This document shows, piece after piece, positions 33,316 through 57,721 of a stretch of 64,000 nt of DNA; position 1 is the first letter of the stretch, and each line of letters opens with the position of its first letter. Position numbers and translations under genes: made by a program. A model generated the notes under the pieces. It was not told where the DNA came from. It was given only the letters and a program-made list of their open reading frames with translations, and did no database searches. Source of the stretch: Podarcis pityusensis (Eukaryota); assembly GCA_964106645.2 (NCBI GenBank), contig OZ067047.1. One strand, written 5' to 3'.

Positions 33316-33706
33316 GTAAGAAACTGAATGTTAAGTTGAGGAGGGCATCCTGACGCTAGATGGTCCGAATGGTGTGGGGGTTGGGAGAGGAGTAAGAATT
33401 GCTGGATGAGGCCAATGACCCATCTAGTCAGCAGTCTCTTGTCATAATGGCCAACCAGATGCACAGGGGAAGCCTGCAAGCAGGTTCACTCCCCTCCTGT
33501 AGTATTCAGAAGGAAACTGCTTCCAGCCATGGAGGCAAAGCATAGCCCTCATGGCCAGTAGCTGTCGATAGTCTTGTCCTCCATAGAAATGAGAGGGGAT
33601 AATGAGATAAGATCTGGTGGCTGCTAGTGGGAGGATTTTGTAGTTTCCTATTGATTAGTGGGTATAGAGAAATTAACCTTTAGGCAACACATTTTCTTCC
33701 CTCCAG

Positions 33707-33903
33707 AGACTTTGACTCTCTAGATGAACACAATGTAGAGAAGAATAACCAGCTGGCATTTGATGTTGCTGAGAAAGAGTTTGGGATCTCTCCCATCATG
33801 ACTGGCAAAGATATGGCATCAGTTGGTGAACCAGACAAGCTGTCCATGGTCATGTATCTCACCCAGTTCTACGAAATGTTCAAGGACTCCCTTCCTTCTG
33901 GTG
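33707..33903 (+). CDS. MICAL3: MICAL3 coding exon 12 (CH domain C-half: DFDSLDE...[10 protein letters not shown]), 197 nt
   Basis: ctccag|A...GTG|gtaaga. Confidence 0.95.
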
Positions 33904-34549
33904 GTAAGAAAACTAGGATGTATCTGCTAGAAATAGTTCTTGAACGCTGTATGCCAAGCTGGGGATTTTTTCTTTCTTTCAGGGGCCACTGACTCATTGG
34001 TGGTGGTGGTGGGCAATCTACAACTACACACAGTTATTAATTAATTTATTGATTCATTGTGCATTTTTAATTGTATTACAAATGCCACAAATATTTTAAA
34101 ATTGTAATGCCTAGGAAGGCATTTGGGGTGTTTGCTGCTTCCTGAAGCTCCAGCTTCACAGGTAAGGATCCAGCAGCAATGTTGTAATCTATCCCTGAAG
34201 TGGAGATGAAGACACATACCTTCTCCTCCTATTGGGAATATTTCTGATGGAACAGAGAAAGCAGACAGGGAAAGGTTGTATGTCTCTCCTAAAAGGAGTT
34301 CTGAACAACTTTAAGCAAAAATATCTTAAATGGTCAGTCCTTTTCTAGAATGGAAAAGAGATTGAATAGAATATTGATTTGGGTGTTTTGCAGCATAAAG
34401 TGTAGGCAAACGAAAAGTGAGAGGGCAGAGAGAAAAAGAAGGATATAGAATACTAAAGCTCATATATGAGAAGAAATGGAACTCTCTTTAGAGTGTTTAG
34501 TCTCAGATTTTGCTATGTCTCAACTAATCGTATTTGTTTCTTCTCACAG

Positions 34550-34662
34550 ATAACCTGGAACTGAATGCAGAAGAAAAAGCTGCATTAATTGCTACCGCTA
34601 AATCTCCAATCTCCTTCTTCAGCAAATTGGGGCAGAGCATCTCTCGGAAACGGACACCAAAG
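34550..34662 (+). CDS. MICAL3: MICAL3 coding exon 13 (NLELNAEEK...SRKRTPK), 113 nt
   Basis: tcacag|AT...AAG|gtaacc. Confidence 0.93.
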
Positions 34663-34986
34663 GTAACCACAGTTGTTTTGGGAATAAATTTGTAGAAAGA
34701 GTGCTTATGTTTATGCCCAGTTCAGGGACACCCTGATCCACCTTGAGATGCTTTGTTGATGGTGTCATCTAACTTGGAAACATGGGAACCTTCCCCAAAT
34801 CACTTGTAATTCAGGTTACACAGAGCTAATGCGTACCCCTAGGACATCAGCTATTCAGGCACCTGCTTATTTTAGATGAGAAGGTTAGGTATGACTTTTA
34901 CTTAACATGCAAAGTAGATTTATTATAGGCATTATTATAGGCTGAGAAAATATGGGCTCAATGTTTTTTCCCCTTTCTGTGCCCAG

Positions 34987-35049
34987 GATAAAAAGGAGAA
35001 GGACCTGGATGGTGCAGGAAAGAGGAGGAAGACAAGCCAGTCAGAAGAT
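34987..35049 (+). CDS. MICAL3: MICAL3 coding exon 14 (DKKEKDLDGAGKRRKTSQSED), 63 nt; completes a bipartite NLS-like segment with exon 13
   Basis: gcccag|GAT...GAT|gtaagt; RKR...KRRK basic clusters. Confidence 0.92.
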
Positions 35050-35872
35050 GTAAGTAAGAGAGTAATCTGTTTTGTTTTGTTTTCCATTTTGCCTTCCTCT
35101 TCACAGGAGGTTCCTCCCAAAAGCAACTGTTCAATTTTCTGTGTGCAAGGGAGGGGATTCAGTCATGTGACCCCGCCTCCTACTTTAGCTCAGAAACATG
35201 CACCACCAGGTATTTGTAAAACCAAATCATCCACCCAAACTGTCAGAGAGGTGTAATTGTTTTGAATACAAAAGACTCCGATTATGGTCACTGTTTTGCT
35301 TACTGCAAGATGTTTCCAGCTAAACCTGAGCAGTGTTGCTTTGATATGTTTGGAGGTGAGCTTTCAGGAATATATGAAGATATGCAGTGCATCCTGATAG
35401 AGAGATGTACAGTACGTTAGCATTTGTGATCTTGATCAATGGGATTTTCCTCTTTGAATTCCTCTTAATACTATGGCATGTGGGGGAGGGAGTCAATTAG
35501 CTCAGATGGGCAAGTTCAGGTTAGCTTTACTGAACTTTTGGAACTCTTGGGACCTCAGGCAAATGTCTTTCCCATCAGCTGCTCTCTGATCCTTTCAGCT
35601 TGAAGATGGAGATTGAATCTGGGGACCTCCTGCATGCAAAGATTGTGCTGTATCACTGAGCTATGGCCCCTTCGTTCTGTTTATCTAAATTTCATTGCAC
35701 ATTCTCATAGCAGGAGCAGTTTAGAAGGTAGATGGGCATATAGTGAGCAGGATAAACTGGCAAGAAGGAAGGTGTGTTTTGAAAATTAGGAGTGATGCAC
35801 AAAATTGGAGATATGCAGAAAGTGGCTCTGGAAAGGGAATCCATTAGTGTATAATCCATTTCAATTTGCCAG

Positions 35873-36046
35873 GAGGACTCTTCCCGAAGCTACCGAGAAG
35901 AGAGGCCCACTCTGGTGAGCGCCCTGACAGAGAGGAGAATTGATGCCGCCATTGGGAATCAGAATAAAGTGAAGTCCATGGCAACACAGCTGCTGGCCAA
36001 ATTTGAGGAGAATGCCCCTGCACAGTCCACAGGCATCCGGAGACAG
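35873..36046 (+). CDS. MICAL3: MICAL3 coding exon 15 (EDSSRS...NKVKSMATQLLAKFEE...IRRQ), 174 nt
   Basis: tgccag|GAG...CAG|gtagga. Confidence 0.94.
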
Positions 36047-37549
36047 GTAGGAAGAGGCTTTTCAGCTTGAATGTCATTTGCACCTCAGCTAATGGCTTAG
36101 CTAGTAGGATGTTTTGGGTTTTTCTGGCAGGGAGAATCTGGAGGCTTGTTGGCTTTGACCAGGGTACCTCCTTGTTCTCAAATAGGTCATATAGGTGAAA
36201 CATCTTAAGGATAGAGGGGAAACTCCATCCTTGGTAACTACTGTTCTTGCACTTACAGGTTTTGTATTATTTTGATAGAGGGCAGCTTTTCTAATGCAAA
36301 GAGCTGCTTGCATGTTGCTCCATCTTTGCCCCAAGGATTAGAACGGTTCTTCAGTTCTGGAGGTTTAATCAGGCTTTCGATTCATGCAGTTTTCTGTGTG
36401 ACGATACTGTTGGCTTCCGCCACCCCCATTGGTTCATATGCATGTTTTATGCCCCATCCTGGGAGATGCAGCTACATGAGTTGTGTGTGTCAAGTGAGTC
36501 ATCTATGAGCTAATCTTTGGTGCATTGCCAACAGTTGAACATATGAGAGAACGCTCCCCATCGTTTGCCCTGTGAATCACTCCATACATAACCAGATTTC
36601 CTGTTTAGAAAAGCAGATCCTCCTAGCTGGAGTGCTGCATTCATCACCTTGGCACCCTGTGTAATTTTAACCTGCTTGAGCATAGTTGGGGAAGTTAAAT
36701 AATAAAATAAATCTGCCAGCATAGAAAATCCGTTTTATAATATACTGCAAGTGGAATCATGTTTTCACTTGCAATTCTGTCATAGGAATGTCTTCAGGGC
36801 AAGAGAGTACACATGGACTAAAACAAATTCATATGGCTGAAGCAAGCATGCTGTCCTGCATATCCCAGGAGAAGATCCAAAACACCAAATGGGCCATAGG
36901 AAAACATTTTTCTGTCCCTTTAATATGGCGTTTTCTGAATGTGAAAGTAAAAGAAAGCGAAGAGGCTTTCAAAAAGAATGCTTTAGCCCTCTAGCAAAGT
37001 GCCTGTTCTTTTACCCCTCCTTAAATTGTATCCATTTCGGTTCTTCAGAAAGGTGGGTAGAAAAAGCCATAAAAGCCTAGCAGTAGAAAATCCTTCCTGA
37101 AGCCAATAATCTTGGTTAAGATGCAAGATTTTGGAGCCTTATCCATCACGGTTTGAGAATGAATGTGCAGCTGCTTCATTCTCAATTCTTGAGAGAATTC
37201 CAGGAATTTTTGGTTCTCTAATAGTTTAAACCCCTTTCAGCTGCAACCTAACATTATTAAAATAAACCATTCCAAAATAAATAAAATGCGGCCCTCTATA
37301 TCTTAAGTTCGCATCTTCCTTTTTTCTTTACTTTTCTCCATTTTCATACGATTTTATTTGCCGACTAATTTTTCCTTACTCCGTTTTTTTTCTTCTTTTC
37401 CTAAATGTCTGTCTGCTGACCACCCTGTCCCAACATTTACCTCATCCCCTTGTGGGTTTCTTTGTGAGTTTCGTTTTGCGTTTGGTGTTAATGCCCTCTG
37501 TGGCCTCCATCCTGCTTATTCTATGACCTGCATGCAACCGTCTGCCCAG

Positions 37550-37633
37550 CCTTATCAAGACCGTGCTCTCACCCAGCCAGCCTACCGACAGCGAGAGCAG
37601 GGCCGCTTTGCCCCCATGCCTCAGTGGAAACAG
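37550..37633 (+). CDS. MICAL3: MICAL3 cassette exon A (PYQDRALTQPAYRQREQGRFAPMPQWKQ), 84 nt, phase 0-0
   Basis: gcccag|CCT...CAG|gtaaaa; open in frame; resembles a 28-aa mammalian MICAL3 insert ending in WKQ (from memory). Confidence 0.8.
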
Positions 37634-40600
37634 GTAAAACGAAACCGAATGAATGATTGTGATGCTCAATCCATCTAAGCTACCACCCCATTGGCTGCTG
37701 CTTTTCCATACCAAATTTCCAGGTTATTCCTGTGGACTCGCACTGTTTTAAAATGGAAAGCCTGCATGTAATTTGACAGTAGGTGTGGCTCACATTAAAG
37801 GGCTATGTTATCTTTTCACTTTCTCCCTGTTCTTGACCATTGGTGAATATTTGAGGAGAAGTTGTGCTCACTTGTCCAGCTAGGGGCTTACTCTTGTAAA
37901 TGAGCCTTAGGAAACTCAGTCTATGTTTGATTACCTGTTAATTTGTGTAATCCAGATCTGATTTCTAGAGGGTTCAAGAGCGGGTTGGGTAAGCAGTTAA
38001 TGTGTCTTGACAACATGTTCTGGTATCCATGAGGATCACTCAAAGGGGAAATCCTAAACATTGGAAAATAGAATGGGAGAATCAGCCCTTTGTCTGAAGT
38101 AAGAGATAGAGAAGAGAGATGTTCCTTGTTATTATACTGTACGTCCTCTGCTTGTGATTTCTCAGTGGCTCATATTAGTAGGTTGAGGTCATTGTGTACT
38201 GATCACATTTCTTACTGACTATGATAGAACCCTGAACTATCCATTTTCATTGAAACTGGTAAGGCTTTTGTCATACTTGCCATGGACTTTGATGTTCATC
38301 TTCAGAGGCATTGCTTTCTTTGAAATAACTATTCCACTTGTAACAGACAAGATATTGACAGCTGTTTTCATATTTAATTTTTTAAAGCTCTAATATTCTC
38401 CATCACTCTCAACTGAGGGATTTTATTTTACTTTTTAAATTGGAATTGAATGGTAGTGTCAGTAAAAAAACCCACACCAATCCAACCCAAGTTTGCCTGA
38501 TTGGAATAAATAATTTAGGAACCAGATTTTATCACCTTCTGCTCTGGCTTGTGGTTGCTATACTAGCATTATTTAAAACATATTTTGTATATAGATTCTT
38601 CGTAATGTAATGATGGCAGGGCTTTCTCATCCTATGATGCATTCGCATGAGCAAATAGAAATCATTTCAGAAAATAAATGCAGGAATAGCTTGTGCATCA
38701 ATACGCTTTTTGTAAATACTGTTTCTATATTCAAGAGATCCGAAAAAGGGATGAGTGACAGTGATACAGCTTCTGATATTATTTCCTCCCTTCAGATGTG
38801 CTTAACACATAGATGGTAGCGGGGGTAGAAATGAATTAAGGTCCTCAGCCTGCAACGCAGCTGATCAAGTGAATTTGATCCCAGTAAGCTCATGTTGCTG
38901 ATGATTTTCTTTTCATCCATCATCTGCTATTCATCGCACTCCATTCCATGGAGTGTCCACAAATATGCTTTTACTTTGGCTAGCCACCATTGGGCCAGAA
39001 GGCACAGGCCTCCACCCTTTTCTGGCCAAAGTTGTGCATGCCTTTTGAAGGCAATGGAGGTGAGGGCACTTCATCCAAGCCAGTTAGATACTTTTGAATG
39101 TAGCCAGTTAGATACTTTTGAATGTAGCAGATTTTTCAAAAGGGCAGGATGACCTTCTATTTAGCATGTCATTAAAATCTAAGAATCTTGCAACAGTCCC
39201 ATGCATGTTTAATTGGTTGTATTGAACTGAATTGTTCTTACTGCCATGTAGGTACACCTAAGATCACAAACCTAGATCCACATAACCCATACACATGTGA
39301 CTTGCTACTTTCTGTTTGTCTAGACTGGTATTTTCCAGATTTGTCTTTTTCGCCTAAATTCATAGCCACAGCCTAGATTCAGATTTTCATAGCTTCACTG
39401 GGTTATTGTTATCCACATAAATCCCATGGTTATTACTATTGGTTTTGATGAGAGAGTGCTGTTGGCCTTGCCAGAGATTTTAGGCTGTAGGCAAACCTGC
39501 TTTGGCTGGGCATGTCCTTGAGGCATTTCACTCTTGCCTGATTTTCAAGTAGTTTACAGAATAATTTTGGTACTTTCTGTTAACATTCTTCAGGCTTTTT
39601 TGAAGGCAGATAGACAGGTTTTTCCAAACTTCAGTTTAGACACTTAGATATGGTGAATCAAATTCAACAATTCAGATGGAAAGCACCTGTCTCTCTTGCC
39701 TAGGAGGTTCCAGCATGTCAGATGTAGCATCTTGTGTTTTCTTTCTTGAGAAGACATGGCAGAACTGGTATTTAAGAATTCTAGGAGACACTTGAATGAA
39801 AACGTGGCCCGGGTCGTAGGGAAAGATGTGGCCAGCAAACCCTGTGCTCTCTTGCTTTCCACCTGACCTTGATTTTTGCACCTGATGAACTGGCCCCTCA
39901 GTTTGCTACTGTTTATACAGGTTACCAACTTGATTCATGAGTCCTGTTTACCCCCATTGATTTAAGAAATGCAGTCAAGTGTGTTCACTGCCTCTGTGCT
40001 AGTTCTCGTTGCCTAATTTTTCTTTTAGTGCTACAGAGAAAGTATACAGTACAATGAGAAGTACCTGCACAATGCAAGTCATGGGTATGTGAATTAAGGA
40101 AGGAACTCTTAAAATAATTCCTGAGTCAATGTGTTTTTTGTTTTTACTGCTCCACCAACACTTAGGTCAACTCATTCACCTTTTTTTGCAAGAAAATATC
40201 CATGATCATGCTACGAGTTGTTAAGCTCTTAAAGAAATGGGACTCAATTACCTGCAGGAGTTATATGCATAATTATAAAATATCCTTGCCTCTGTTGGTT
40301 ACTCTTTGAGGATTTCTTGATTGGTCTCTTATTAAAAAGAGCTGAATCTGCTGTGCTGCTAGGGGAGGTGGAAACCCAAGCTATTACGTGTCATAGGAAT
40401 AATTGTGTCATTTTGGTAATTCCAATGAACTTCATCTCATTCTCTTAACTTCATCATTCATTTGCATACTTACATCACTTGAGAGAGGTGTGTGGTGTGT
40501 GTGTGTAAAACAAAGGAAGCCTGTGAAACTGGAAGTTGCTTGTTTGAAGTCTGGGGTCAGAGGGTGGTAAGATCAAGGTGGTGTTGTCAAGGAATAGATC

Positions 40601-41213
40601 TGTCTCGGGTTCTTCTTGGAAGGATATATGGATATGCAGTAAACACACTCTTTTTGGTAATGATAACACCCAAAGATCCATTTGAGTTAAGCCAGCCATT
40701 GAGATGGAATAGAACTATGCCAGTCAACTTGTTTCTGTCAAGTGGAATCTTCCTCCATTTTGTACTTATTAATGTGAGCATCATTTACTACTGGCCTTTT
40801 CTGAACTCAGAAATGCATCCTATTTGAAGATGGAAAACAATGTTATAATTATAGGAAGGCCAGCAAGGGCTCCGGCCTGCTTTACGTTTGTGTGACTGCC
40901 ACCTTAACAAAAAAACAACAAACATTATTCTCTTAGCTAATTTTTTTTAGAAGGCTATATGAGTAGGACATGATCTGGCTAAACTTGGTGGGAGACAGTC
41001 AATGAGGTCCTGGATTTTATTAAGGGTCCCCATTAGCTTTCTCCTTTCCCCCCAATTTGAGCAGTGATGGGAAACATTCCTATTGTGCCTTATGGATGTT
41101 GACAACTCTTGACCTGCAGGAACAATACACAAATCTTTCCCTTTAGGCTTTAGATTGCCCAGAGTTAAAAATGCTTAAGATTCATCTTTTAAGAAGGACT
41201 TTTGGATTTGCAT

Positions 41214-41215
<2 letters not shown>

Positions 41216-41243
<28 letters not shown>
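41216..41243. repeat. Poly(A) tract, ~28 nt
   Basis: Direct inspection. Confidence 0.9.
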
Positions 41244-41247
<4 letters not shown>

Positions 41248-42301
41248 AAAGTGGACCAATATTTTCAAAATAAGCAACATTAGTGGTGTTGGTGTTTATG
41301 TACTGCTTTTTGAAATAGAGCCCCCCCGGGGGGGCATTTTATACAACAAAATACACAGTCAAGTGCAATTTTAAAAATCACTGCACTTTGGCTTTTGGCT
41401 GGACTAGAAGGGGCTACCAACCCCCAACCCCCAGTACACATAAATATGAGCACCAGGAATGAACGAAGATTTGCACATTTTTGTTATGTTAACATTCAGC
41501 TTCCAGCATTTAATTTGCAGCAAATAAAAGTTTGGTACAATGCCTTTATTTTATTCCCCGCACCTTTTGGTGTGTGTTACGTTTGAAAGGAATAGGATAT
41601 TCTGTAGCTCAACAGCAGCTGCATAAAAATGTCCTTTTTAAACATGGGCCAATTTGATGCCTTTGAGATTCCAAACAGAACTACTTATATTTGAATCCCT
41701 GTTACCTGAATTTCATTTATATATCCCTCATGTCACCTGTTGGTTGAACCATTCAGATAAATGAGGCATCATATAATGGCCAGCTATGCTTGTAGTGACA
41801 CAGGGACTTCAAATGACATTGGCCACCTCATGAGGAAATACAGCTCACTTGCATTGATGCGCAACAATGCTGGTTCCTACTTGTCAACTGAGAAAGAGAA
41901 GCAAGATCAACATCCTCCGCACGATGCATTTCTGAGGCCTTGCTCACATACGGACACAATGGTGGCGGTAAAATTATTCCTGGACAACTTTAGATAGGCA
42001 ATTACATGGTTGAATGAAAAATTCCCTGCCCCTATGCCAGCTTTCTGTTAGGCAAAGGCTGTGCTACTTGGTAGTACTTAGTTTTTGTGTGTGCTGAGGG
42101 ACCATTCAGAGCCCTTCCACTTCTGGGTAACCTGAACTGGTGTAATCCAGAAAGAATTTTAATATTTCATCCGCTGTTTGGGGAAACTTTAGTCTGTGGC
42201 CTTGCCACAACTAATAACCATCATCATTGACCATGTTTCTTCTTGTTCTATTATTATTATTATTATTATTCTTTTTTTTTCTCCCTTGTTTGTAAACAAA
42301 G

Positions 42302-42400
42302 ATGAGGAAAAAGGAGCGTTCTCGGACCTGCCCCAAAAAAGTGATCATGCTCTCTTCTTCCTCCATTTGCACTTCCTCTCCATCGTACCCCAGTCAGCAG
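42302..42400 (+). CDS. MICAL3: MICAL3 cassette exon B (MRKKERSRTCPKKVIMLSSSSICTSSPSYPSQQ), 99 nt, phase 0-0
   Basis: Pyrimidine tract then acaaag|ATG...CAG|gtgatt; stop-free; RTCPKKVI motif recalled from MICAL3 isoforms. Confidence 0.75.
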
Positions 42401-44130
42401 GTGATTTCATTCTGCATGCTCTGTCCTCCTTTCCCTCTCTTCCTGCTTCCACAACTAGGCCACATACCCCTTCTGTTTTGAGTTTTCTCCTAAAACTGAA
42501 TAGTGTCAGCAGACCTCTTGATCTTCCCCTCCCCAAAACCAGTAACACAAGCAAACCCAGAATTCATTTTATCATTGTTTGATTTAAGGTAATGTACACA
42601 TATAACTTCCTTACATTCTGTTGTTATGGTGACGTTGTGTAGTAGGTTGGTGTACCAAACAAAAACCTGAGATATTAGTAAAGGTTGCTGTTGATAGTGC
42701 CCAGTTGTTATATTGGATGCTGTAAGAGCAGTGACACACTGGTTTCTGGATCTAAAATGAGCAGTCTAGGTGGCCTTCAGCTTGGTTTTGCATTGTAATG
42801 AGAAGAGAAGCATAATGTAATGCCTCTGTAGGCTTCCCATTCATTGCTGAGATTACAGGCACATCCTTTATCCATCTGTTTATTTGAAGTACTTGCATGT
42901 TACCTTTCAGAGAAAAGCCACTCACTCCCAAGGTGGCTTACAAAAGATATTTCAGGACAATTTAGCGGTTTAGGATATTTTCTCTCCCCTGCCCCCATTA
43001 AATACCACTGAAAGGGGTGTCCTATCTCAGGATCAGAGCTTATCCTGGATCTTACTTTCACTCTAATGAAACTAAGATAGATAATGTGCCTAAACCCGCT
43101 TCCTCTGGGCTGGTCTAGTACAACTCTCATTACCCCAGACCATTAGCCATGTTGGGTAGGGTTGATGGAAGTTGGGGGTCCAACAACATCCTCAGGGCAC
43201 CAGATTGGGGAATGTTAGCCTTGAAGCAGATTCTTATATTTGGCCTGTGATGTGGGAACTGCTGCAGCGCTTCTCCCACAGCACCAGGATGACTTTGTTT
43301 AATAAAGGGGTCGTGCAGACATCCTACAGTTTGCTAGAATGTAAACCCATTGTTGTACCTACATTACTTAGAAGTTGGGGGAGGCCAGGATGCTCCCCGC
43401 TTCATGAGAATGACAAGGAATTCCAAAACATAGCCCCCAAAAGTCTTCCAGGTTTTACCAATTCTAGCCTGCTGCGGTTTCCCTTACTTTCCTAGTGTGT
43501 TGTGCTGCTCTTACTTACCTCCACCAACTGACCCATAGTACCACTAATCAGCATGGCAGTCGTCTAGAATGCCTGGGCCCAGCTGTGTTACCTGGCTTTG
43601 GGACCTTGGGAAGCCTGCCCCATTTCCTGGTCACCCTCCCTCACTGATGTTGTTAAAACATTCCTCCAAAGTAGTTTATTGTTGAATACTTTGTTCAAAT
43701 TAGGCACCCCAGTTACATGATTGTGTCAAAAATGTGGGGGCCTTGAGTCAATTTATAATAAATGGTTTTATTTGAGTTTTTATTATAAAATTAGATAACA
43801 GTGCAAAATACACTGATACAATACGGGGCAGTCGTACAATTCATCTCAACATCAGTTACATATTTTATTGGTATCACTCCATGTTGAACGTTCCGTTTGT
43901 GCAAGCATTGCAACTTGCCGGAAAGAATAATTCCTTCTCTCTTCTCCTCCCCAGCGTGCTGCTGTCGGGGTTCTCCTGACCCCCACTCCCTAGCCAATTT
44001 CAAGGGGAGTAGGGGGTGGAGAGGAGGGGAAACCCATTGCACAAGGGGAAGTCCTTGTGCAGGACATTCACTAGCTGTGTTTGTTTTGTTAGGTGAATCA
44101 TGGTACATAGTTTACCGCAGAAGTTCCCTC

Positions 44131-44364
44131 CAGTGTGGTGTAGTGGTTAAGAGCGGTAGTCTCGTAATCTGGGGAACCGGGTTCGCGTCTCCGCTCCTCC
44201 ACATGCAGCTGCTGGGTGACCTTGGGCCAGTCACACTTCTTTGAAGTCTCTCAGCCCCACTCACCTCACAGAGTGTTTGTTGTGGGGGAGGAAGGGAAAG
44301 GAGAATGTTAGCCGCTTTGAGACTCCTGAAGGGGAGTGAAAGGTGGGATCTCAAATCCAAATCC
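44131..44364 (+). mobile_element. tRNA-derived SINE with L2-type tail (Squam3-like)
   Basis: A box tggtgtagtggtt, B box ggttcgcgtct, gggtgaccttgggccagtcac core, agccgctttgag 3' region. Confidence 0.8.
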
Positions 44365-45333
44365 ATAATGTCAGGGCCAAAATAGAATTATTGATAAATG
44401 CACACTTATTCTGATGTCTGCAACGTAGAATATGGTTTACTTACAGTTGGAAAAACTGGGTCAGCTTCTCTTGCTTGATCTGCAAGAAGAGTTAGCTTCT
44501 AAATGGGAAACTTACCACTCAGTCTTGTAAACTATTTGTTTTTAAGGTGTTTTATATTTCATATATAGTTGCATTGACTCACAAAACTGGAAAGTTGAAG
44601 GAAACAGTACTATTTAAACAGCACGTAAAATTATAAAGATCCATTTGGAAGGGGGGGGGTGTGCGCGCGCGTGCGCGCACACACACACACACACACATTT
44701 TGTCTTATGAAGTATGACCAGGTTTGTGAGTTTCTGGGAGCTACATTTTTATAAAACTATACCTGTGTGTATAGAGGATAATCAAAGCTGCCTCCAGGTG
44801 CCTGCATTCTTGGGGCAGGGAAGATTACGGTCTGTCTTATCGTAGGATACCACTGTGGATTTCCCAGGCCAGGGAGCCTTGTTTCTTGTTCACGTTGAGG
44901 GGACCCCAGGCTCTTCAAAATAACCTTTGAATTAAAAACAGACTTGGTGATCACTTAAGCTCAGTGGACATATCTCACTTTGCCTCTAAAGTTTATTCCT
45001 CATATTACTTTTAAAACTAGGATTTTCCAAGGAACAATTTACGGTTTCTTGGGAGCAGTTCCTCCTTCTGCCGCCACCACCACGTGTATCACTGTGTGGA
45101 TATTTATTGCTGTTGTCACCATTTACTAACACAGTTTGTATAAAGTATCCTTTTTAAATGCTCTGCACAAAACCTCTTTCTTCACAGCAGCCACATGATC
45201 TTTGCAAACCTCCTATGGCTTTTCCAGGACTGTGGTTTTAATGTTTCTCTTGTAGGGTGACTCCTAACTGAACGATGCTATCTTTCTGTGAGTGTGTATG
45301 TGGGATTTGTCAAGGTCATTATTTTGCCTGCAG

Positions 45334-45390
45334 GCAAACAGGGAACCTCATGGAGAACCAGCTGGAGAGCAGAGTCCCAGACAGCAGCGG
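45334..45390 (+). CDS. MICAL3: MICAL3 cassette exon C (ANREPHGEPAGEQSPRQQR), 57 nt, phase 0-0
   Basis: cctgcag|GCA...CGG|gtaaaa; stop-free, multiple of 3; two GCATG motifs just downstream. Confidence 0.65.
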
Positions 45391-45959
45391 GTAAAATAGC
45401 ATGAGCAAAAGCAGCATGAAGAGGGTGTGTGCACTCTTGGGAGAATGTTGTGCAAGCTGGGGGTGGGTAAGAGAAGGCTGGAGAGCTATTCATATGCCAG
45501 CATAATACTAATAGCCAAGCTCTACTGAAAATGCTTCGTAAAAATAGTGGTTTTGTGTCTGTATGGCCTTTGCAGAATTACTTGCTTGACAGACTTTTGA
45601 TCACTTTGAGCATCATGCAGTATGTTTTTTTTCCGTCGGGCACATATTAGCACTTTGAATTTGGCATTCCCCATTTTTCTCTATAATAGGAGATACTATA
45701 GTGGAGTAGAAAGGGCCTGCTGATGTGTCGGAAAATATCTATCCATCTCTCTGAATCATTATTACCTCGTTCTTCAGCCAAAAAAGCTCCCAGAGCAGCT
45801 TACAGATCAATAAAAAGCTAGACAAGCCTAGCCCTCAGGCTCACACTTTAAAAGGAATGACACAAAATGAAAAAGGGATGGGGCAGAAAGAGGAAAACAA
45901 GACAATGCAGGAACCAGTTCTTTGTTAGTTCTTTTTGTAAATAATAAAACTATTGTTAC

Positions 45960-46141
45960 TCCCTGTGGAACACCCTCCCGTCTGATGTCAAGGAGATAAA
46001 GAACTATACAACTTTTAGAAGACATCTGAAGGCAGCCCTGTATTGGGAAGTTGTTGTTTGGCGTTTTATCGTGGTTTTCTGTGGGCTGGAAACTGCCCAG
46101 AGTGGCAGGGGAAACCCAGCCCGATGGGTAGAGTATTGAAA

Positions 46142-46172
<31 letters not shown>
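45960..46172 (+). mobile_element. L2 3' end with (AAAT)n tail, inserted into an older L2-type element (45750-46210)
   Basis: Reverse complement of the 540-750 element; older host resembles 27220-27420. Confidence 0.75.
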
Positions 46173-47171
46173 ATAGCTGGGATAGAAACAGTTCACGTAG
46201 CCTGATGGAATAAATCTTCATGACAGTAGGGAAAAAGGGACATTTTTAAGCATCCCCCCACAAAAGCATAGAAAACTAAATTAACTGGAATAAGCTTGGA
46301 CCAAAGTAGAATATACAAGGAAAGAGAATGAATTGACTTAATAAAGGCATGGATCGATGCTGCAGTCTGCCTGCTCAATATATTTCTAAAAGCTGCTCAT
46401 CACAGTAAATAATTTTGAAAAGGAACCCTACACGATACAGTTTTGAGGATACTGAGGATTTTGTGTTAAACATCACTAGCCCCTCACAGAGAACTATGCC
46501 TTTGCCATTGTTTCCCTTCCATGACCCTTCTCTTCACCACTAGCTTGGTATTGCATCCAGTCTCCAAAACAACCAGGTTAAAAAGTTGGAGCGAGGGAAG
46601 TGAGGAAGAAAACCCCAGAGGTTTTGTCCCTGTGTCGATATTGCATCTGCCTGGCTTCCCTGCCTCTATTCACTCCCTACCTCTCAGTAGTTTTCGTCAC
46701 TACAGACAGCAAGTGCCCTTCTCCAGATCCCTGTGACACACCTGTATTTCACAGCAGCTAACCTATGATGCTGCTTTGGCGGCACAATCTTGGCTCCTTT
46801 TCCTGCTGCTGTAGGATTCATAAACCACAGCTTCCAAAGGTCACAGCCCTCTGCATGCTTCCTGAGCAGTAAACTTATTTAAATCAGTGACTTCCAGAGT
46901 AGACCTAATTTGGATTTGGCTACTGTAAATGGTTTGTGTTATATGTATGTCACATCTGCAGGGTGTGTGTGTGCAACCTTCATCCAGAGGATTTTGAGCT
47001 CTTGTTCCCCTCCTTGCCCGTGTCCCACTTTTTTTTTTATGCACAAGCATTTAATTAACTGCCTCTGACCTTATTTTCAGCTTTGTTTCTTTTCCTACTG
47101 CCATGCTTTTTCCATGAATATTTTTTCCCCTGTGCTCTCTTGTTCATTTTCCCTCACTCATTATTCTGCAG

Positions 47172-47285
47172 AGACCTCACCAGTTCTTTTCAGATGACCG
47201 TGTGCCAGAGCGCACGCTTACCATTGAGCAGAGGGCAAGCCAGCTGGCTGCCCTCCTGGAGCAAAGGCCAGCAACCAGGCATCAG
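47172..47285 (+). CDS. MICAL3: MICAL3 cassette exon D (RPHQFFSDDRVPERTLTIEQRASQLAALLEQRPATRHQ), 114 nt, phase 0-0
   Basis: ~90-nt pyrimidine tract, ctgcag|AGA...CAG|gtgact; stop-free; helical motif resembles exon 15. Confidence 0.7.
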
Positions 47286-48544
47286 GTGACTGCCTTCCTG
47301 TCTGTCTGGCGCTTTGTGTCTGCTTGCCGTTCCGTAGAATGGGAAATGAAAGGTTGCTTGGGCTGTAACATGGCTGGCATCAGATGTCCTGTTTTAATGG
47401 CTGATGAGTACATTATCACATTGTAGCAGAACATTTTCAAGCACTCTGGGTAAACAACAATATCCAAACTCATTATTCCGTCTTTCCTGTTAACTTACTG
47501 TTCCTGCTTGCTGAATCAACACTTAATCTTGCATAGATGCGTCTAGCACTAATAAAAAGTTGTGTGGCATATGTGGGGAAGAAGCTCCTAACTTAAAGGG
47601 GCTTTTTAGAGTTTGCACTTCCATAAGAGTAGGGTAGAATGTGTATTGAAAGACTCAGCTAGATTCAAGAAGTGTTGGTGGAGCATTGCTTAGCCAGTCT
47701 GGAGAGGAAGAGGGTCTGCGGTATGTAACTAGGTTTTGGAAGCAAGGTTCTATAAAATTAGCTTGCTAAAGAGTAACCCAAAACAAATGAAACCAGGAAG
47801 TTAACTAACCCCAGAACAGCCTTTATATATAAACCAAATGGGCTTTGAAAACTTGTTTATTTCTTTAAGCAATATACACATTCTTGCTATATGTGCTCTA
47901 ATTTTTAAACATGTATGTCAGTGCCAATATTCAATCATATATCATCAGTTGCTGATCAGAATTTATTTTCTGACCCTGAGTGGGCTGTTATAATGTATTT
48001 CATCTCGTTAAACTCTGGAAGGTCTAATATCAATTGCTTTTAGTCATTTTGCCAAACAAAATACTGATGGGGTAAAAGAGGCTATTGAATGCAAGCACAT
48101 GCATTTTGACATGTGTCTTGCTTAACAGTCTTGCAGTCTCTCTTACCATGCAGAAATTTTAGAAAGTTGTTTCTTTTCAACCTTCTTACTAGGAATTTTT
48201 GGTATTGCTTCATGATTGGAATAGAATTCCTCGTATTTTATTCAGGATACATCTAGCCCACAGTTCTTTATAAATCCACTCATTTCTAAAACTTGAAAGA
48301 CAAGCATCAGGAAGGTCATTCACAGCTGAAATTAGTACATGGATTTGGTGTTCCACCATTCCCTCCCCCCCAAATATCAATGTTCTGAACTTTGGCTGGG
48401 GAGTTTAAAAGTAGTAGGGCATGCCCACAGTTTTCCTACGTCACTTGCAAGCTACAAGATCTCTGCTGCCTGTCTCACCCGCCCCTTCCCAAAAGCTCCT
48501 ATTTTGAAATGCCGTCTTCTGACTTTCTCATCTTTATTTTGTAG

Positions 48545-48652
48545 CCAGAGATTGAGCGATCTCGTCGATCTGTTGTTGAGCAGTGGGAGCTCTCCCGCAA
48601 CCTCCGCTCTTCCAGTCGCCCTTCTTCTCCCTCCTCTGACTCCCTCAGACAG
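48545..48652 (+). CDS. MICAL3: MICAL3 cassette exon E (PEIERSRRSVVEQWELSRNLRSSSRPSSPSSDSLRQ), 108 nt, phase 0-0
   Basis: ttgtag|CCA...CAG|gtagca; stop-free; QWELS..LRSS.RP.SPSSDSLRQ recalled from MICAL3 isoforms. Confidence 0.82.
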
Positions 48653-50099
48653 GTAGCATGGTGTGGGGCTTGAGGCTGCACCCGGTTGCACATCTTTGGC
48701 CTATTCCATCTCCTGCCACTTGAGAATGCCGCACTGGATAAAGCTAGGCTAATAAGTTCTCTTTGCCTTGGGTGTGGCTGAGCTTAGCCTGTGTGCCTGC
48801 AGAAAGGCTTGGGATTCCTCTGTACCCTGGTTATTCCAAGGCTTGTGAATTTGGAAATGCTCCATATCCTTTACACCTCGGAGTTACTGATTGTCTGGTA
48901 GGAGAGAGAGCAATGGCTAGCAAATGTTTCACAAAGAATATTGTATGTCTCATCCAGAACTGGCTTGTTCTGCCTCCAGATAAGTAAAGGCATACCCTGG
49001 AATGCACTCACCCAGTTGGGAGATGTGTTGGGTCCGAATCACCAAGCCATAGTTTGATCATCAGAAGTCCTTTGTGGGCTGAAATGCTTCTTCCTCTGCT
49101 TTCTCCTGCATCTTCCTTGGGCTTCTTCACTTCACTTTCATTTCCTCCGTAGCTATATCTTGGTTTTATTATAATGTTTTGAACAGGTGCTGCCATAATC
49201 ACTTCTCACTATAATTCATTCTCAAGTTGGCAATTAAAGCCAAGTTCAAATTGTGGTTTGAGTCACTCAAATGAAAACAAAATTAGGCTAGCAGTAATTA
49301 TGACCTGCTAGTTTAACCACGGCTTCCCAGTATATCTTTTGCTATGCGGGGAAGGGAAGTGGAATAATGCAGACTGCTACTGACCACCAAACCATGGTGA
49401 TGTTGGAACTGGACCATTGTGTAAACGGCCATTTCTGACTACTAAGGATCCCCCAATAAGGCTTCATTGTTGCCAAGAGTGGGATTCACTGTGTTGTCTG
49501 TCTCTTAACAGCTGTTTCTAGCACTGGATTTTCTGTGACCATTGAACATCTACATGATGAATAACTGCTTGTTTGCTGCTTCACTTTGAGGATGTGATTC
49601 AAACCACTATATTGCTTTGTGTGTCTTATAATATAACAGATTAGTTGTGGTTTGATTTTTGAACAGCATAGTGAATACTGAAATGCTTGCTGCTTGTCTC
49701 ATCTAGATTAAGGTTTAAGGGATTTCTGATTGTTCTATAGGAAGAGCTATACTGTATTGGTCATTGTGTCACTGAATGTTGTCTAATTCTTCAAGATGGG
49801 CATGGAGAATGTGGACACCTGTCTGTTGTAGAACTAATATTTGCTTTTAAACAATGTAGTCTTGCTCTGAGAATTCTGTAGAGTTTTTATGGGAGAGGTG
49901 GATTAGATTCAAATTGATATTAGGGAAATGTAATAATCTTTAGCATGGGCAAGAAGCACCATCCTTTAGAGCACATAGTCCCCTCTGTCTGCTTGTAGAG
50001 TGGGGAAGAGAAGGACTCACCAACCAAGGCCTTCCCTTCAAAAGAAAACTTGTGGATGACAATAGACCTGTTTCTGACAAAATTCTCACAATTGTTGGA

Positions 50100-51180
50100 A
50101 ATAGGTCAGGGAATCCCCCAAAGATCTGTATTGGGACAGTCTATGAGGAAGTCCGTAGCTGAAGAGATTTGTTTTGCACACAGTCCACACACAAAAGAAA
50201 AAATAGAAGAGGCTGTCTTAGAGACAATAAGACTGTGTAACTTGCCCACAAATGATCTGGAAGTGATCAGTGAAAGCCAACTTTGCAGATGGCACCAATT
50301 TATAGAGCATGATGAAAACCTGAGCAGACTGTGAAGAGTTCCAAAAGAACATCTCCAAATGAGGTGAAGGGGCAAAAAATGTGCTAATAAGTGTAAAGTG
50401 ATATATATTGGAACAAAACATTCCAATGCTGATTGAGTCTAAACTGGCTGAGACTGTCCAAGAATGACAACTTGGAGCTGCGGTGGAGAGCTCAGTCAAA
50501 ACTTGGTGCAGCAGCTGTGGAAAGACAAATTCCAATATTGCAGAGGTGGATAAGTGGTGCAGATGAGGCACCAAAATACCAGTCAAGAAGTTGGGAGGGC
50601 ATTCCTGGCAAGGCTTGTATGTTTGGGGCCTTTTAATTTAGAAAAGAAATACTAAAGGAGACACAATATAGGGTTATAAGATGATTATATACTTTTCAAT
50701 GTTTACATGGCATCGAAGTGGTTTATGAAACATTAAAACCAGTTGCACAACCTTGTTGAAATACAGAATAATGAAGAACGTACCATAATTGAAATACACA
50801 ATAAATCCATCCCATTAAAATGTTAAAATAGAAACATGTGATTAAAATATGGAATAAAACTATCGCATTAAAATCCCCCAGCAATTAAAACAGGAGACTT
50901 GGGTCAAGAGATGAAAGGAATGCCTGTATAAACAGGCGTGCCTTCAGAAGCTGGTAGAATACCAATACAGATGTGGAATGCACTACCCCAACACCTGTGC
51001 CATCAATAATACATGATGCGGGGGAAATGAGGGAATGTTTTTCCCTCTCACAAAACTAGAACTCACTTAATGAAATTGTCAGTAACAGATGAAATAAAGC
51101 ATTTTTTTCACACAATATGTAATAAACTTATGGAATTCACTGGTGTCATAAGATGTGGTAGTCAATGGCTCAGATTGGTT
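50100..51180 (+). mobile_element. Degraded CR1 RT fragments interleaved with L2 tail fragments
   Basis: GIPQRSVLG (cf. GVPQGSVLG), tttgcagatggcacc (FADD-like), aagtgtaaagtgatatatattgg. Confidence 0.6.
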
Positions 51181-51390
51181 TTTTTAGTGACTTGTTCATT
51201 TTTTAATTAAATTTATATATCACACATCATACGAAGATCACAGGACAGTTTACAACATAAAAACACAAAATGCATAACACAATCATAATAAAAACAACAC
51301 ACACACACACCACCTTTAAAAGGCCATAGGTTGTTTAACAGAAGGCCTGGTTGAAGAGAAATGTTTTTGCCTAGGTCTAAAAGCAGTCAT

Positions 51391-51726
51391 GGACGCGGGT
51401 GGTGCTGTGGGTTAAACCACAGAGCCTAGGACTTGCCGATCAGAAGGTCGGCGGTTCGAATCCCTGCGACGGGGTGAGCTCCCATTGCTCGGTCCCTGCT
51501 CCTGCCCACCTAGCAGTTCGAAAGCACGTCAGAGTGCAAGGAGATAAATAGGTACTGCTCCGGCGGGAAGGTAAACGGCGTTTCCGTGCGCTGAAGTGAC
51601 ATAGTCATGCTTGCCACATGACCTGGAAACCGTACGTCGGCTCCCTCAGCCAATAAAGCGAGATGAGCACCGCAACCCCAGAGTCGGCCACGACTGGACC
51701 TAATGGTCAGGGGTCCCTTTACCTTT
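51391..51726 (+). mobile_element. Full-length Sauria SINE inserted in an L2 fragment (51200-51390)
   Basis: Near-identical to the 24935 copy; ACCTTT tail; TSD-like taaaagcagtcat/taaacacagtcat. Confidence 0.9.
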
Positions 51727-52784
51727 AAACACAGTCATGAGAATTTACACAGATTCATGGGGGTTATGGATCTTTCAAAATGTGTAGATCGGCAATTAGC
51801 TGCAGTTTGAAATACCATATCAGTTGAGAGTCCTGTTGACTTCAGGCCCTCCGCCTGACCAGTCTTCTGATCCCTCAGGTCTATTCTTCCAACAGAAAGG
51901 CCCATTAGTTGTTAATAATGTATCTACTTAGGTAAATAGAAGGACTTGCTGATTTTACTCTCTGTTCTTCAGTACAAAGTACACTGGCTTATAATAAGTG
52001 GAATATCTGTTGTTTTTGAAAAGGGCAAACTGTCAAAGGTTCTTGAGCTGAATTTGATATTCTGCTTCCTTGCTTGAGAGGCCAGGCAACCCTCATCCAT
52101 CTTCCTCTCCCCATAAACCTAAGGGAGAATTGGCAGGATGCAGTTATATGACTTGCTAGGTGGGACTGTGTGTGAAGAATCTCAGTACCTAAGGTTCTGT
52201 AAACTTAATGGCTTGTGCTCCCCCCCCCCCAAATATATTTCTGAAACACAATCCTATCTAGTTATCTTTTTGTGTTATATGGTTTGCTGCTTAAATAACA
52301 GTTGAAACCAATCATGTTGTTTAAATAAAAATAAGCAAAGGCAGCCATGTTGGTCCATAAGACACTCCCCTCGCAACTTCCATAGTAAAGAAATACCTTT
52401 TTAAGACCAACCAAAATGTAACAAAATAATGGGCAAGCTTTTGGGTTCTCCAGCATTCTTCATAAGCTGGATGTGGGCGAGAAAAAGGCTTGCTTGGTGC
52501 TGAAACTACAGTGTCTGCACATTGGCCTCCGACCTGAGATGGGGTATGAAAAGAGATAGTGGGCTTCATATCCAACTGGGGAGACGGGGATGAAGAAACA
52601 CACAGTGGCTAAAAACACTAGTATTTTTGCAGCCCTGCAAGAAAGAACATATATCTGAGCATGCAAATTTATTACACCCCTCTTTCCCTTTTAACTTCTC
52701 CTCCAGATATCCTTTCCCCAGACTATGTAATTCCCCAGTCTGATTTGGGATATCATAAATAGCCATGATATCCCAATATGGGTA

Positions 52785-53783
52785 CCGTATTTTTCGCTCC
52801 ATAGGACGCACTTTTTCCCCTCCAAAAATGAAGGGGAAATGTGTGTGCGTCCTATGGAGCGAATGCAGGCTTTCGCTGAAGCCTGGAGAGCGAGAGGCAT
52901 CAGTGCACACCGACCCCTCTCGCTCTCCAGGCTTCACGAAGCTGGGAGTTCCCGCGGGCTCACAAGGCTTGCAGGCAGCAGCCTGCAACCCCGGCGAGTG
53001 TCCGCAAGCCTTGCGCGCCCGGCAGGAGGTCCCGCCAAGCGCGCAAGGCTTGGGGCAGCAGCCTGTCGCCCGAAGCATGGGGAGCCCTCCGGAGGGCTCC
53101 CCGTGCTTCGGGCGAGTGTCTGCAAGCCTTGCGCGCCCGGCAGGAGGTCCCGCTGAGCGCGCAAGGCTTGGGGCGGCAGCCTGTCGCCCGAAGCACGGGG
53201 AGCCCTCCGGAGGGCTCCCCGTGCTTCGGGCGAGTGTCTGCAAGCCTTGCGCGCCCGGCAGGAGGTCCCGCCGAGCGTGGGAGGCTTCGGGCGGCAGCTT
53301 GTCGCCCGAAGCACGGGGAGCCCTCCGGAGGGCTCCCCGTGCTTCGGGCGAGTGTCTGCAAGCCTTGCGTGCCCGGCAGGAGGTCCCGCTGAGCGCGCAA
53401 GGCTTGGGGCGGCAGCCTGTCGCCCGAAGCACGGGGAGCCCTCCGGAGGGCTCCCCGTGCTTCGGGCGAGTGTCTGCAAGCCTTGCGCGCCCGGCAGGAG
53501 GTCCCGCCGAGCGCGCGAGGCTTGGGGCTGCAGCTTGTCGCCCGAAGCACGGGGAGCCCTCCGGAGGGCTCCCCGTGCTTCGGGCGAGTGTCTGCAAGCC
53601 TCGCGCTCCCGGTGGGAGGTCCCGCCGAGCGCGCGAGGCTTGGGGCGGTAGCCTGCAGCCCGAAGCACGCGAGGCTTGGGGCGGCAGCCGCGGGGGGGGG
53701 AATAATTTTTTTTATTCATTTCCCCCCCCAAAAAACGAGGTGCGTCCTATGGGCCGGTGCGTCCTATAGAACGAAAAATACGG
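52785..53783. mobile_element. Non-autonomous Tc1/mariner (Tc2/pogo-like) DNA transposon
   Basis: TA target duplication on both sides; 27-bp TIR ccgtatttttcg(c/t)tc(c/t)ataggacgcac with 2 mismatches; no transposase. Confidence 0.88.
52993..53669. repeat. CpG-rich 118-bp minisatellite, ~5.7 copies, built around a 50-bp palindrome
   Basis: Units start at 52993, 53111, 53229, 53347, 53465 and 53583. Confidence 0.95.
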
Positions 53784-54300
53784 TAATCCATGCTACCTCA
53801 TCCCTGAACCCATAGCACTCTTAGTCCCCTGGGGTTTCTGTTTGGGGGAGGGGGGTCAACAACCAGCAGCTCATGGACTAGATCTGACCCTATGGCAGGA
53901 CTATGTTCAGCTGCCAATCTAGAGATAAGCATGGTGTTTGGAAAGAACATGGCAGCTGTTATGGGAAACCTTTGTGGGAGATGGGGTTAGAAACACCTTT
54001 CATCTCCAACGACTATCTGGCAAAAGAAAGTCTCTGACCAGGGTCTTAGAGTGGCTGATTACAAACTGCTAATAATTTTATTTAGTGCTGCCCACACCAG
54101 TGGTTTCTGAGATCACTTGTTTTGCTGGTGCCACACACGCTTGTGTTGTCCACTGTCTTGGCATGGTTTCACCCCTTTCTGCACCTTTTTTGCCATTTTT
54201 TTCTTTCGTAGTTTTCATCCTGAATTTATACTGTTTCTCTTTTCCCTCATTTTCCCCATCCATCTTACCTCCCCCCACCCTCATTACCTTCATCTGGTAG

Positions 54301-54408
54301 AAGTATATAAAGATGTATACAGGTGGCGTGAGCTCATTGGCTGAGCAAATAGCCAATCAGCTTCAAAGGAAAGACCAACCCAAAACCCTTCTAGACAAGA
54401 AGGAACTG
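54301..54408 (+). CDS. MICAL3: MICAL3 cassette exon F (KYIKMYTGGVSSLAEQIANQLQRKDQPKTLLDKKEL), 108 nt, phase 0-0
   Basis: Long pyrimidine tract, tggtag|AAG...CTG|gtaaga; stop-free. Confidence 0.85.
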
Positions 54409-55143: not shown

Positions 55144-55330
55144 GGTTCCTTGAAAAAAGAATTCCCTCCAAATGTGGGAGGCAGTGATGTCTGCTACTTC
55201 TGCCACAAGCGTGTCTACGTGATGGAAAGACTGAGTGCTGAAGGCAAATTCTTCCACCGCAGCTGCTTCAAATGCGAATACTGTGCTACAACCCTGCGCT
55301 TGTCCTCTTATGCCTACGACCTGGTGGATG
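55144..55330 (+). CDS. MICAL3: MICAL3 coding exon 16 (LIM domain: [14 protein letters not shown]), 187 nt
   Basis: ctttag|GGT...GATG|gtaagt; LIM Cys/His spacing. Confidence 0.96.
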
Positions 55331-57391: not shown

Positions 57392-57479
57392 GACAGCAAA
57401 GGGACCCAGCAGGACAACATGGCGGCTGACGGTGCAGGACGTGCAAACTCCATCTCAACTTCGTCAGAGAGGACTCCAG
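57392..57479 (+). CDS. MICAL3: MICAL3 coding exon 18 (DSKGTQQD...ERTP), 88 nt, donor used by the long isoform
   Basis: ccccag|GAC...CCAG|gtagct. Confidence 0.9.
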
Positions 57480-57721
57480 GTAGCTCTGCTTCCTTGTTTG
57501 GCAGGGTGATGCAGTACTCGCTCCACCTCTTTGACAGAGTTAGGGTGGCAAGCCAGCTCCTGCAAAACACAGTTTCCTCAGTTGGGCACCACGTAGCCCA
57601 AAATCCTTTGGACTCCTTTTTCATGTGCCAGCTGATGGCTTTTGGAGTCCCCTTTATCTATGTCCAGTCGGAGGTTCTTGTGCAGATAATGGGGGAGTTT
57701 TTATCAGCACTAGGATATTAA
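57480..57721 (+). CDS. MICAL3: Read-through terminal extension of exon 18, short-isoform C-tail (GSSASLFGRV...NPLDSFFMCQLMAFGVPFIYV...ALGY*)
   Basis: Frame stays open ~80 codons past the donor to TAA at 57719-57721 with protein-like composition; NPLDSFFMCQL..FGVPF resembles a mammalian short-isoform tail (from memory). Confidence 0.75.

Follow-up and report, generated by a model that had tools for sequence, protein, structure and literature searches.

Six annotated frame-preserving exons between the CH and LIM domains of a lizard MICAL3 gene, the last of which likely encodes a duplicate of the pre-LIM helix

The window analysed in the current work is a stretch of 64,000 nucleotides (nt) from Podarcis pityusensis (GenBank assembly GCA_964106645.2, contig OZ067047.1) that carries exons of MICAL3, the gene of an actin-oxidising enzyme. 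Its subject is a series of six short exons, A to F, which lie between exon 15 and the first LIM-domain exon. Orthology is clear: aligned block by block as single exons, the window exons are 98-100% identical to MICAL3 models of Podarcis muralis, and the LIM exon as a query returned 1099 proteins with squamate MICAL3 as the top matches. The monooxygenase, CH and LIM domains are all present in the encoded protein, which has its highest identity to MICAL3. Exons for the bMERB domain are not within the window; they were read from the proteins of relatives only. The features of the region are as follows.

Exon 13, 34549..34662, plus strand: 114 nt, phase 0-0, upstream of the array; spliced in all four transcript runs; counterpart of the MICAL1 helix L2alpha1/HelixCHL.
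Exon 14, 34987..35049, plus strand: 63 nt, phase 0-0; encodes a basic stretch.
Exon 15, 35873..36046, plus strand: 174 nt, phase 0-0; present in all four runs; the pre-LIM amphipathic helix lies at its end.
Tandem acceptor zone of exon A, 37538..37549, plus strand: the upstream acceptor (start 37541, 93-nt exon) reads CCG in the window; the downstream CAG (start 37550) is intact.
Cassette A, 37550..37633, plus strand: 84 nt, 28 amino acids (aa); found alone in lizard and bird transcripts; a similar segment occurs in mammals and a shark.
Cassette B, 42302..42400, plus strand: 99 nt, 33 aa; a basic part followed by a Ser/Pro-rich one; human HsaEX0039220 by length and order.
Cassette C, 45334..45390, plus strand: 57 nt, 19 aa; lowest conservation; human counterpart HsaEX0039221.
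Cassette D, 47172..47285, plus strand: 114 nt, 38 aa; found in gene models of squamates, a turtle and birds; possible third, more diverged helix copy.
Cassette E, 48545..48652, plus strand: 108 nt, 36 aa; aromatic motif and Ser-rich tail; traceable to teleosts; human HsaEX0039222.
Cassette F, 54301..54408, plus strand: 108 nt, 36 aa; highest conservation; likely duplicate of the pre-LIM helix; human HsaEX0039223.
First LIM-domain exon, 55144..55330, plus strand: phase 0 acceptor; joined to exon 15 and to exon A in contigs.

A preliminary description had proposed the six segments from the sequence, and its measurements hold: segments of 84, 99, 57, 114, 108 and 108 nt stand at these positions, each preceded by AG and followed by GT (6/6), all multiples of three, phase 0-0 and open in frame 0, summing to 570 nt or 190 aa. 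Exons 13, 14 and 15 are likewise symmetric (114, 63 and 174 nt). Such properties do not identify exons, as 430 segments of 54-120 nt that are AG..GT-bounded, stop-free and divisible by three occur on the plus strand of the 19-kb interval and 400 on the minus strand; sequence criteria were therefore ruled out as proof on their own. A crude splice-site filter leaves five candidates on the plus strand, C to F among them, compared with a single one on the minus strand, and scores the acceptors of A and B as weak. The choice of exons is confirmed by homology and RNA rather than by the AG..GT criteria. An extra plus-strand candidate at 36869-36946 also passes the filter; no matching insert was seen in the relatives' proteins inspected, among which no dedicated search was made. 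Exon F has a single match within its own genome. The basic stretch of exon 14 is presumably a nuclear localisation signal, a label we carry over from MICAL2, and the 63-nt mouse Mical3 switch event MmuEX0028978 of VastDB, with a mean percent spliced in (PSI) of 98.9, may correspond to this exon.

One boundary needs a qualification. The 84-nt form of exon A fits the window, as proposed, but most relatives begin the exon 9 nt upstream (93 nt), where the window has CG in place of AG. The longer form is found in models of P. raffonei, Zootoca and Rhineura, and the 84-nt form in snake models and one P. muralis model. At position 37539 a related lizard, organism A, has an A (one contig of run X10, depth 4.5) where the window has a C; this C leaves only the 84-nt form open to the window sequence. 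In one P. muralis model (P0008) exon 15 is lengthened by 18 nt (36047-36064); this is probably a modelling artefact, as all contigs use the donor at 36046.

The array had been described as hidden, which it is not: all six exons already stand in public annotations (RefSeq, with four human counterparts in VastDB), so the exons as such add nothing to annotation. RefSeq MICAL3 of P. raffonei (XP_053261183.1), Zootoca vivipara (XP_034982838.1) and Crotalus tigris (XP_039222245.1) has exons in the same interval, order and phase, the 84-nt exon A of the window, which lacks the upstream acceptor, being the difference from most relatives. Five of the six peptides are identical throughout to P. raffonei isoform X1, and B agrees at 32/33 residues. 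All six occur in order in 5/6 listed RefSeq isoforms of P. raffonei, 7/9 of Zootoca, 10/14 of C. tigris, 10/11 of Hemicordylus and 8/8 of Rhineura, as well as in geckos, a turtle and birds.

Conservation differs widely along the array, with identity to the window ranking F first, then E (26-28/36), then B, A, D and C, the last with 6-12/19 identical residues outside lacertids. Exon F is identical at 36/36 residues in Zootoca and Crotalus, at 35/36 in gecko, turtle, gull, deer mouse and camel, and at 27/36 in eel, and is more conserved than the neighbouring LIM exon (54/62 in deer mouse and camel). Open frame, length and order of the cassettes are preserved from lizards to mammals. The suspected likeness to mammalian isoform inserts is borne out, B, C, E and F (372 nt) corresponding to the 124-aa insert of primate and pika models, while D is present in squamate, turtle and bird models and in none of the 28 mammalian MICAL3 proteins examined. 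Pfam searches with A, B, D, E and F (C, of 19 aa, being too short) gave nothing but a sub-threshold TFC3_eWH match on F, which was taken as chance. Among counts of splicing-factor motifs in 250-nt flanks, TGCATG occurs in both flanks of A and in the downstream flank of B, where 0.12 would be expected per flank; these occurrences are too few for a conclusion.

Transcript evidence comes from contigs of four runs (X1, X2, X7 and X10) of organism A, from at most three samples in three studies. Their RNA nature was guessed, and they splice on GT..AG at three introns. The contigs were aligned to 33650-42290, a stretch that takes in exon A and ends short of B-F, and all but four of the alignment rows were seen. 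Exons 12-15 are spliced on GT..AG in all four runs. In X1, X2 and X10 exon 15 is joined straight to the LIM exon, so all six cassettes are skipped in three of the four runs. In X7 a 149-nt contig (depth 11.1) reads exon 15, A and LIM, with the acceptor 9 nt upstream of the one originally proposed (93-nt form), and the main contig (depth 25.6) stops at the exon-15 donor. No loose contig end pointing to B-F is found among those displayed for this stretch, which is not evidence of absence, given that contigs drop rare forms. Nine long, bird-like proteins of the Logan collection, from a search bounded at 2000 residues, include four without an insert and five with A alone. Over 95 nt, exon A does not differ at all between the window and organism A, whereas nine intron pieces differ by about 4% (p about 0.02).

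In human, VastDB (PMC5630039, Supplementary Table S4, among the parts available) lists four MICAL3 exons of 99, 57, 108 and 108 nt in one interval, classed SwitchAS, with mean PSI of 6.2-7.0, minimum 0 and maximum 85.6-90.5 across 95 samples. These were assigned to B, C, E and F from their lengths and order rather than from a DNA alignment; Tables S2 and S3 hold no MICAL rows. The human exons are off in most samples and reach about 90% inclusion in a few. Their near-equal statistics suggest that the counterparts of B, C, E and F are included together in a few samples. Among gene models, 295 of 349 proteins could be classified into 22 patterns (led by ABCDEF 80, none 40, ACDEF 35, AEF 30, A 28, BCEF 22 and ABCEF 22); these counts are not frequencies, since they describe gene models retrieved by queries that favoured E and F, in which some of the rare patterns are evident mis-predictions. 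Altogether, inclusion seems to take one of three forms: no cassette, A alone or, rarely, most of the block. Mutually exclusive homologous exons of the tropomyosin or Dscam type were considered and rejected: all four runs contain exon 15, which also stands alongside D and F in the 80 ABCDEF models. Exon F adds to exon 15 and does not replace it.

Invertebrate Micals have one helix at a distance of about 43 residues ahead of LIM, and exon F likely encodes a second copy of it. In a set of 150 representatives (50% identity), the LIM domain was located in 69 and an exon-15-like helix of at least moderate score was found upstream of it in 32; six were dropped, lying outside 32-54 residues from LIM or being vertebrate-like, which left 26 outgroup helices (25 distinct). 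The four of these proteins that were looked up belong to amphioxus, acorn worm, sea star and scallop. The outgroup helix lies a median of 42.5 residues from the first LIM cysteine, 37-46 residues in 20 of 26. When a profile of the 25 helices was run over the P. raffonei protein, the exon-15 helix ranked first and F second of 2302 windows, and the score of F was reached by none of 1000 shuffled proteins. The spacing agrees as well: the exon-15 helix stands 43 residues before the first LIM cysteine when the array is skipped, and the F helix 44 residues when F is included. In a predicted model of the Varanus D-E-F isoform (48-row alignment) the linker has a predicted local distance difference test score (pLDDT) mostly under 50, and linker helices appear only at exon 13, exon 15 and F.

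The case of exon D is less clear. It ranks fourth by the helix profile and beats shuffles of its own exon (p=0.005). A likeness of D to the gene's own bMERB helix 3 was examined as a possible decoy and set aside: against a shuffled C-terminus it gave p=0.0002 in lizard, 0.014 in bird and 0.70 for the D-like teleost segment, and it is most likely chance among helices rich in E, Q, R and L. In the Muraenolepis model P0351, residues about 807-862, two tandem D-like helices lie nearer to the exon-15 helix than lizard D does, which suggests a further duplication in teleosts as far as a single gene model goes.

The paralogue MICAL2 carries a related arrangement, and its linker was searched in the lizard.

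Lizard MICAL2 linker, G000:C1:68029790-68038747, minus strand: candidate phase-0 exons of 111, 204/210, 102 and 108 nt.

Of 11368 six-frame windows, the one that scores best with the F profile belongs to a 108-nt exon of phase 0-0, the last before LIM. This exon aligns with F ungapped with six identities (p=0.0016), shares the last six acceptor bases and has the same 44-residue spacing. An F-like exon is also found in bichir MICAL2, and lamprey and hagfish representatives, one isoform each, have no insert. Judged from these alignments, F appears older than the MICAL2/MICAL3 split; the same case for D is weaker, the best MICAL2 window of the D profile falling by a narrow margin in the 102-nt exon. 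The 102- and 108-nt candidates match in length two of the five switch-like human MICAL2 exons of VastDB Table S4 (123, 219, 102, 126 and 108 nt; PMC5630039, in part). Human MICAL2 (HsaEX0039208-213) and lizard MICAL2 have switch-like phase-0 exons in the same interval as the MICAL3 array, the 108-nt last exon being paralogous to F and the 102-nt exon bearing a D-like helix. The remaining exons are of other lengths, and none of them clearly matches A, B, C or E. Mean inclusion is higher in MICAL2 (19-24%) than in the MICAL3 exons. Cassette splicing of MICAL2 has been validated by reverse transcription PCR (PMC2875023, in the passages available).

In MICAL1, the autoinhibitory clamp includes L2alpha1 (residues 630-647), an amphipathic helix in the linker between CH and LIM (PMC11557892, PMC11315924 and bioRxiv 2024.06.17.599268, in their available parts). 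Its MICAL3 counterpart lies in exon 13, by eye on the MICAL1 homologue P0399. The cassettes were thus rejected as homologues of L2alpha1/HelixCHL, the matching segment lying upstream of the array. The helix of exon 15 and F is likewise amphipathic and situated in the CH-LIM linker, where the MICAL1 helix has its regulatory role; in contrast to it, the exon-15/F helix scores at background level in the MICAL1-like proteins examined, and the available text of the MICAL1 structure papers assigns it no role.

Other clusters of cassettes are comparable in part. The variable exons of CD44 form another cluster that encodes a disordered linker. In RAPGEF1, adjacent in-frame optional exons 12-14 encode a disordered, Ser-rich stretch used in a tissue-dependent manner, like the MICAL3 array (bioRxiv 2024.04.07.588436, in part). 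The MICAL3 array differs from both clusters in that its last cassette copies a helix of a constitutive exon and re-establishes the distance of that helix to the domain that follows. Several splice forms per MICAL are stated in reviews (PMC9982024, PMC3645671 and PMC3221843, in part). The regulated 51-nt Mical3 exon of PMC12721327 is a different event, adjoining the coiled coil. Several Mical3 exons are repressed in P1 cortex according to PMC3896118, whose available passages leave unspecified which ones. No study found in a search that took in few subscription papers deals with what these exons do or with the duplicated helix.

The reading we consider rather probable is that the six are genuine, annotated, frame-preserving exons which act as a tissue-dependent switch, seldom turned on, through which binding motifs are added, and not as a free dial of length. 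By default MICAL3 would have a single pre-LIM helix, all six exons being skipped in the main form of the runs examined; A alone would add about 30 residues. Exons B-F would enter largely together in a few tissues, with single drop-outs, and contribute a disordered, Ser-rich stretch and a second helix with the ancestral LIM spacing. The insert would enter the disordered loop downstream of the exon-13 helix, so that the clamp of CH, L2alpha1, LIM and bMERB, which keeps MICALs shut, would be left uncut. With F included, the F helix may take the LIM-proximal position, while the exon-15 helix, shifted about 190 residues away, may become a second, free docking element; altered tethering or stability of the closed state could follow. 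The conserved spacing points to a putative partner site of the helix on or beside LIM. More tentatively, it is proposed that MICAL2 and MICAL3 inherited an exon-level duplicate, older than their split, of an undescribed pan-bilaterian regulatory helix whose place has to be about 43 residues before LIM, and that tissue-switched inclusion of F swaps the LIM-docked copy, sets the other one free and thereby changes autoinhibition or actin tethering; we regard this fuller proposal as possible but doubtful. Prediction of a complex of F with the monooxygenase-CH-L2alpha1 unit, LIM and bMERB, run without alignments, gave 0.05 and 0.00 against a mark of 0.34, which speaks neither for nor against.

Several points weigh against the switch and the helix copies. 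Inclusion of B-F in lizards is drawn from gene models and from the length and order match to human exons; all 21 Logan matches to F continue into the intron, none of the 120 matches listed of 1044 is of Logan origin, and the limit of 2000 residues shut full-length isoforms with B-F out of the Logan protein search. Matching summary statistics do not prove co-inclusion in one molecule, and models such as AEF, ACDEF, AF and ADEF show that the B-F block is not strict. The outgroup helices were chosen with the exon-15 profile and a distance window set after looking, and the exon-15 and F helices of the Varanus model have pLDDT of about 45-50. For D as a helix copy, 55% of shuffled proteins reach its score, the exon is non-helical in the Varanus D-E-F model, and the whole-exon comparison with the 102-nt MICAL2 exon gives p=0.15.

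Among the alternatives, the repeated helix could be a grip on F-actin of the Lifeact or SFM kind, so that inclusion of F (and D) would add actin anchors and avidity for the substrate. The SFM motif VxxLxxxFE (bioRxiv 2025.04.16.649135) is a short amphipathic helix in a disordered region, as is the helix of exon 15. This helix belongs to an enzyme that acts on actin, lies in its disordered linker and bears the LxxxFE part, with L at P4, F at P8 and E at P9; one of the two D-like copies of the teleost model also ends in FE. The defining residues, Val at P1 together with Phe at P8, are not found together in exon 15, F or lizard D: exon 15 has Phe at P8 but Ala at P1, a change that abolishes binding in that study; F has Val at P1, Leu at P4 and Ile at P8; and lizard D has neither Val nor Phe. 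The word MICAL is also absent from the text of the study, the part available to us (its Table 1 being an image). The partial likeness points to actin as a candidate partner, and we consider the grip itself unlikely.

The preliminary description had favoured independent choice among the exons, up to 64 combinations, with linker length tuning the assembly of the autoinhibited CH-LIM-bMERB clamp. Such a dial would agree with the shared phase 0-0, the 22 gene-model patterns, the predicted disorder of the linker and the statement that long MICAL3 L2/L3 loops may sterically affect the compact assembly (PMC11315924, in part). Against it, only two forms occur in the lizard contigs of 33650-42290, the four human exons have near-identical, switch-like statistics, and the symmetry belongs to the whole linker, exons 13-15 included. 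Moreover, the 35/36 identity of F, its recognisable helix and the conserved spacing go far beyond what a spacer needs. Free combination is not supported by these data, and mere length would not explain why F is so well conserved; we judge the dial improbable. That splicing of most segments is weak, or that they were carried over from annotations of other genomes, with no meaningful protein in lizards, could be argued from the gene-model basis of B-F, the weak acceptors of A and B, the mean human inclusion of 6-7% and the divergence of C, but is very improbable in view of the frame, length and order kept from lizards to mammals, the near-invariance of F, the human maxima of 86-90% and the absence of differences in exon A.

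Further features of the window may be recorded. An element at 52783-53785 has TA-bounded inverted ends, about 29 nt long (by eye), around a tandem repeat of a GC-rich 118-bp unit (5.7 copies at 94% matches), and accounts for the long spurious open reading frames on both strands there; it looks like a non-autonomous insertion of Tc1/mariner type. Two further insertions in introns of the array, at about 44130-44350 and 51390-51730, resemble short interspersed nuclear elements (SINEs), presumably those of squamates. Downstream of the array, exon 18 can be read through its donor (after 57481) at 57392-57721 on the plus strand, giving about 80 further codons with a hydrophobic end and a stop, with AATAAA at 57886. 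Models of Varanus (89.5% over 105 aa), of a turtle (78%) and of pika (60%) share the conserved read-through. It would give a short MICAL3 without the bMERB brake, and might correspond to the alternative last exon described in bioRxiv 10.1101/373704.

Overall, the locus presents ordinary, known splicing together with one modest structural lead. The exons themselves are already in RefSeq and VastDB, and the probable helix duplication is the new element here. Studies of MICAL3 appear to use the form without these exons, and no paper testing them was found. If F is a true second copy of the conserved pre-LIM helix, MICAL2 and MICAL3 would have a regulatory element that is invisible in MICAL1 structures, and F would offer a handle on how a few tissues retune actin oxidation.

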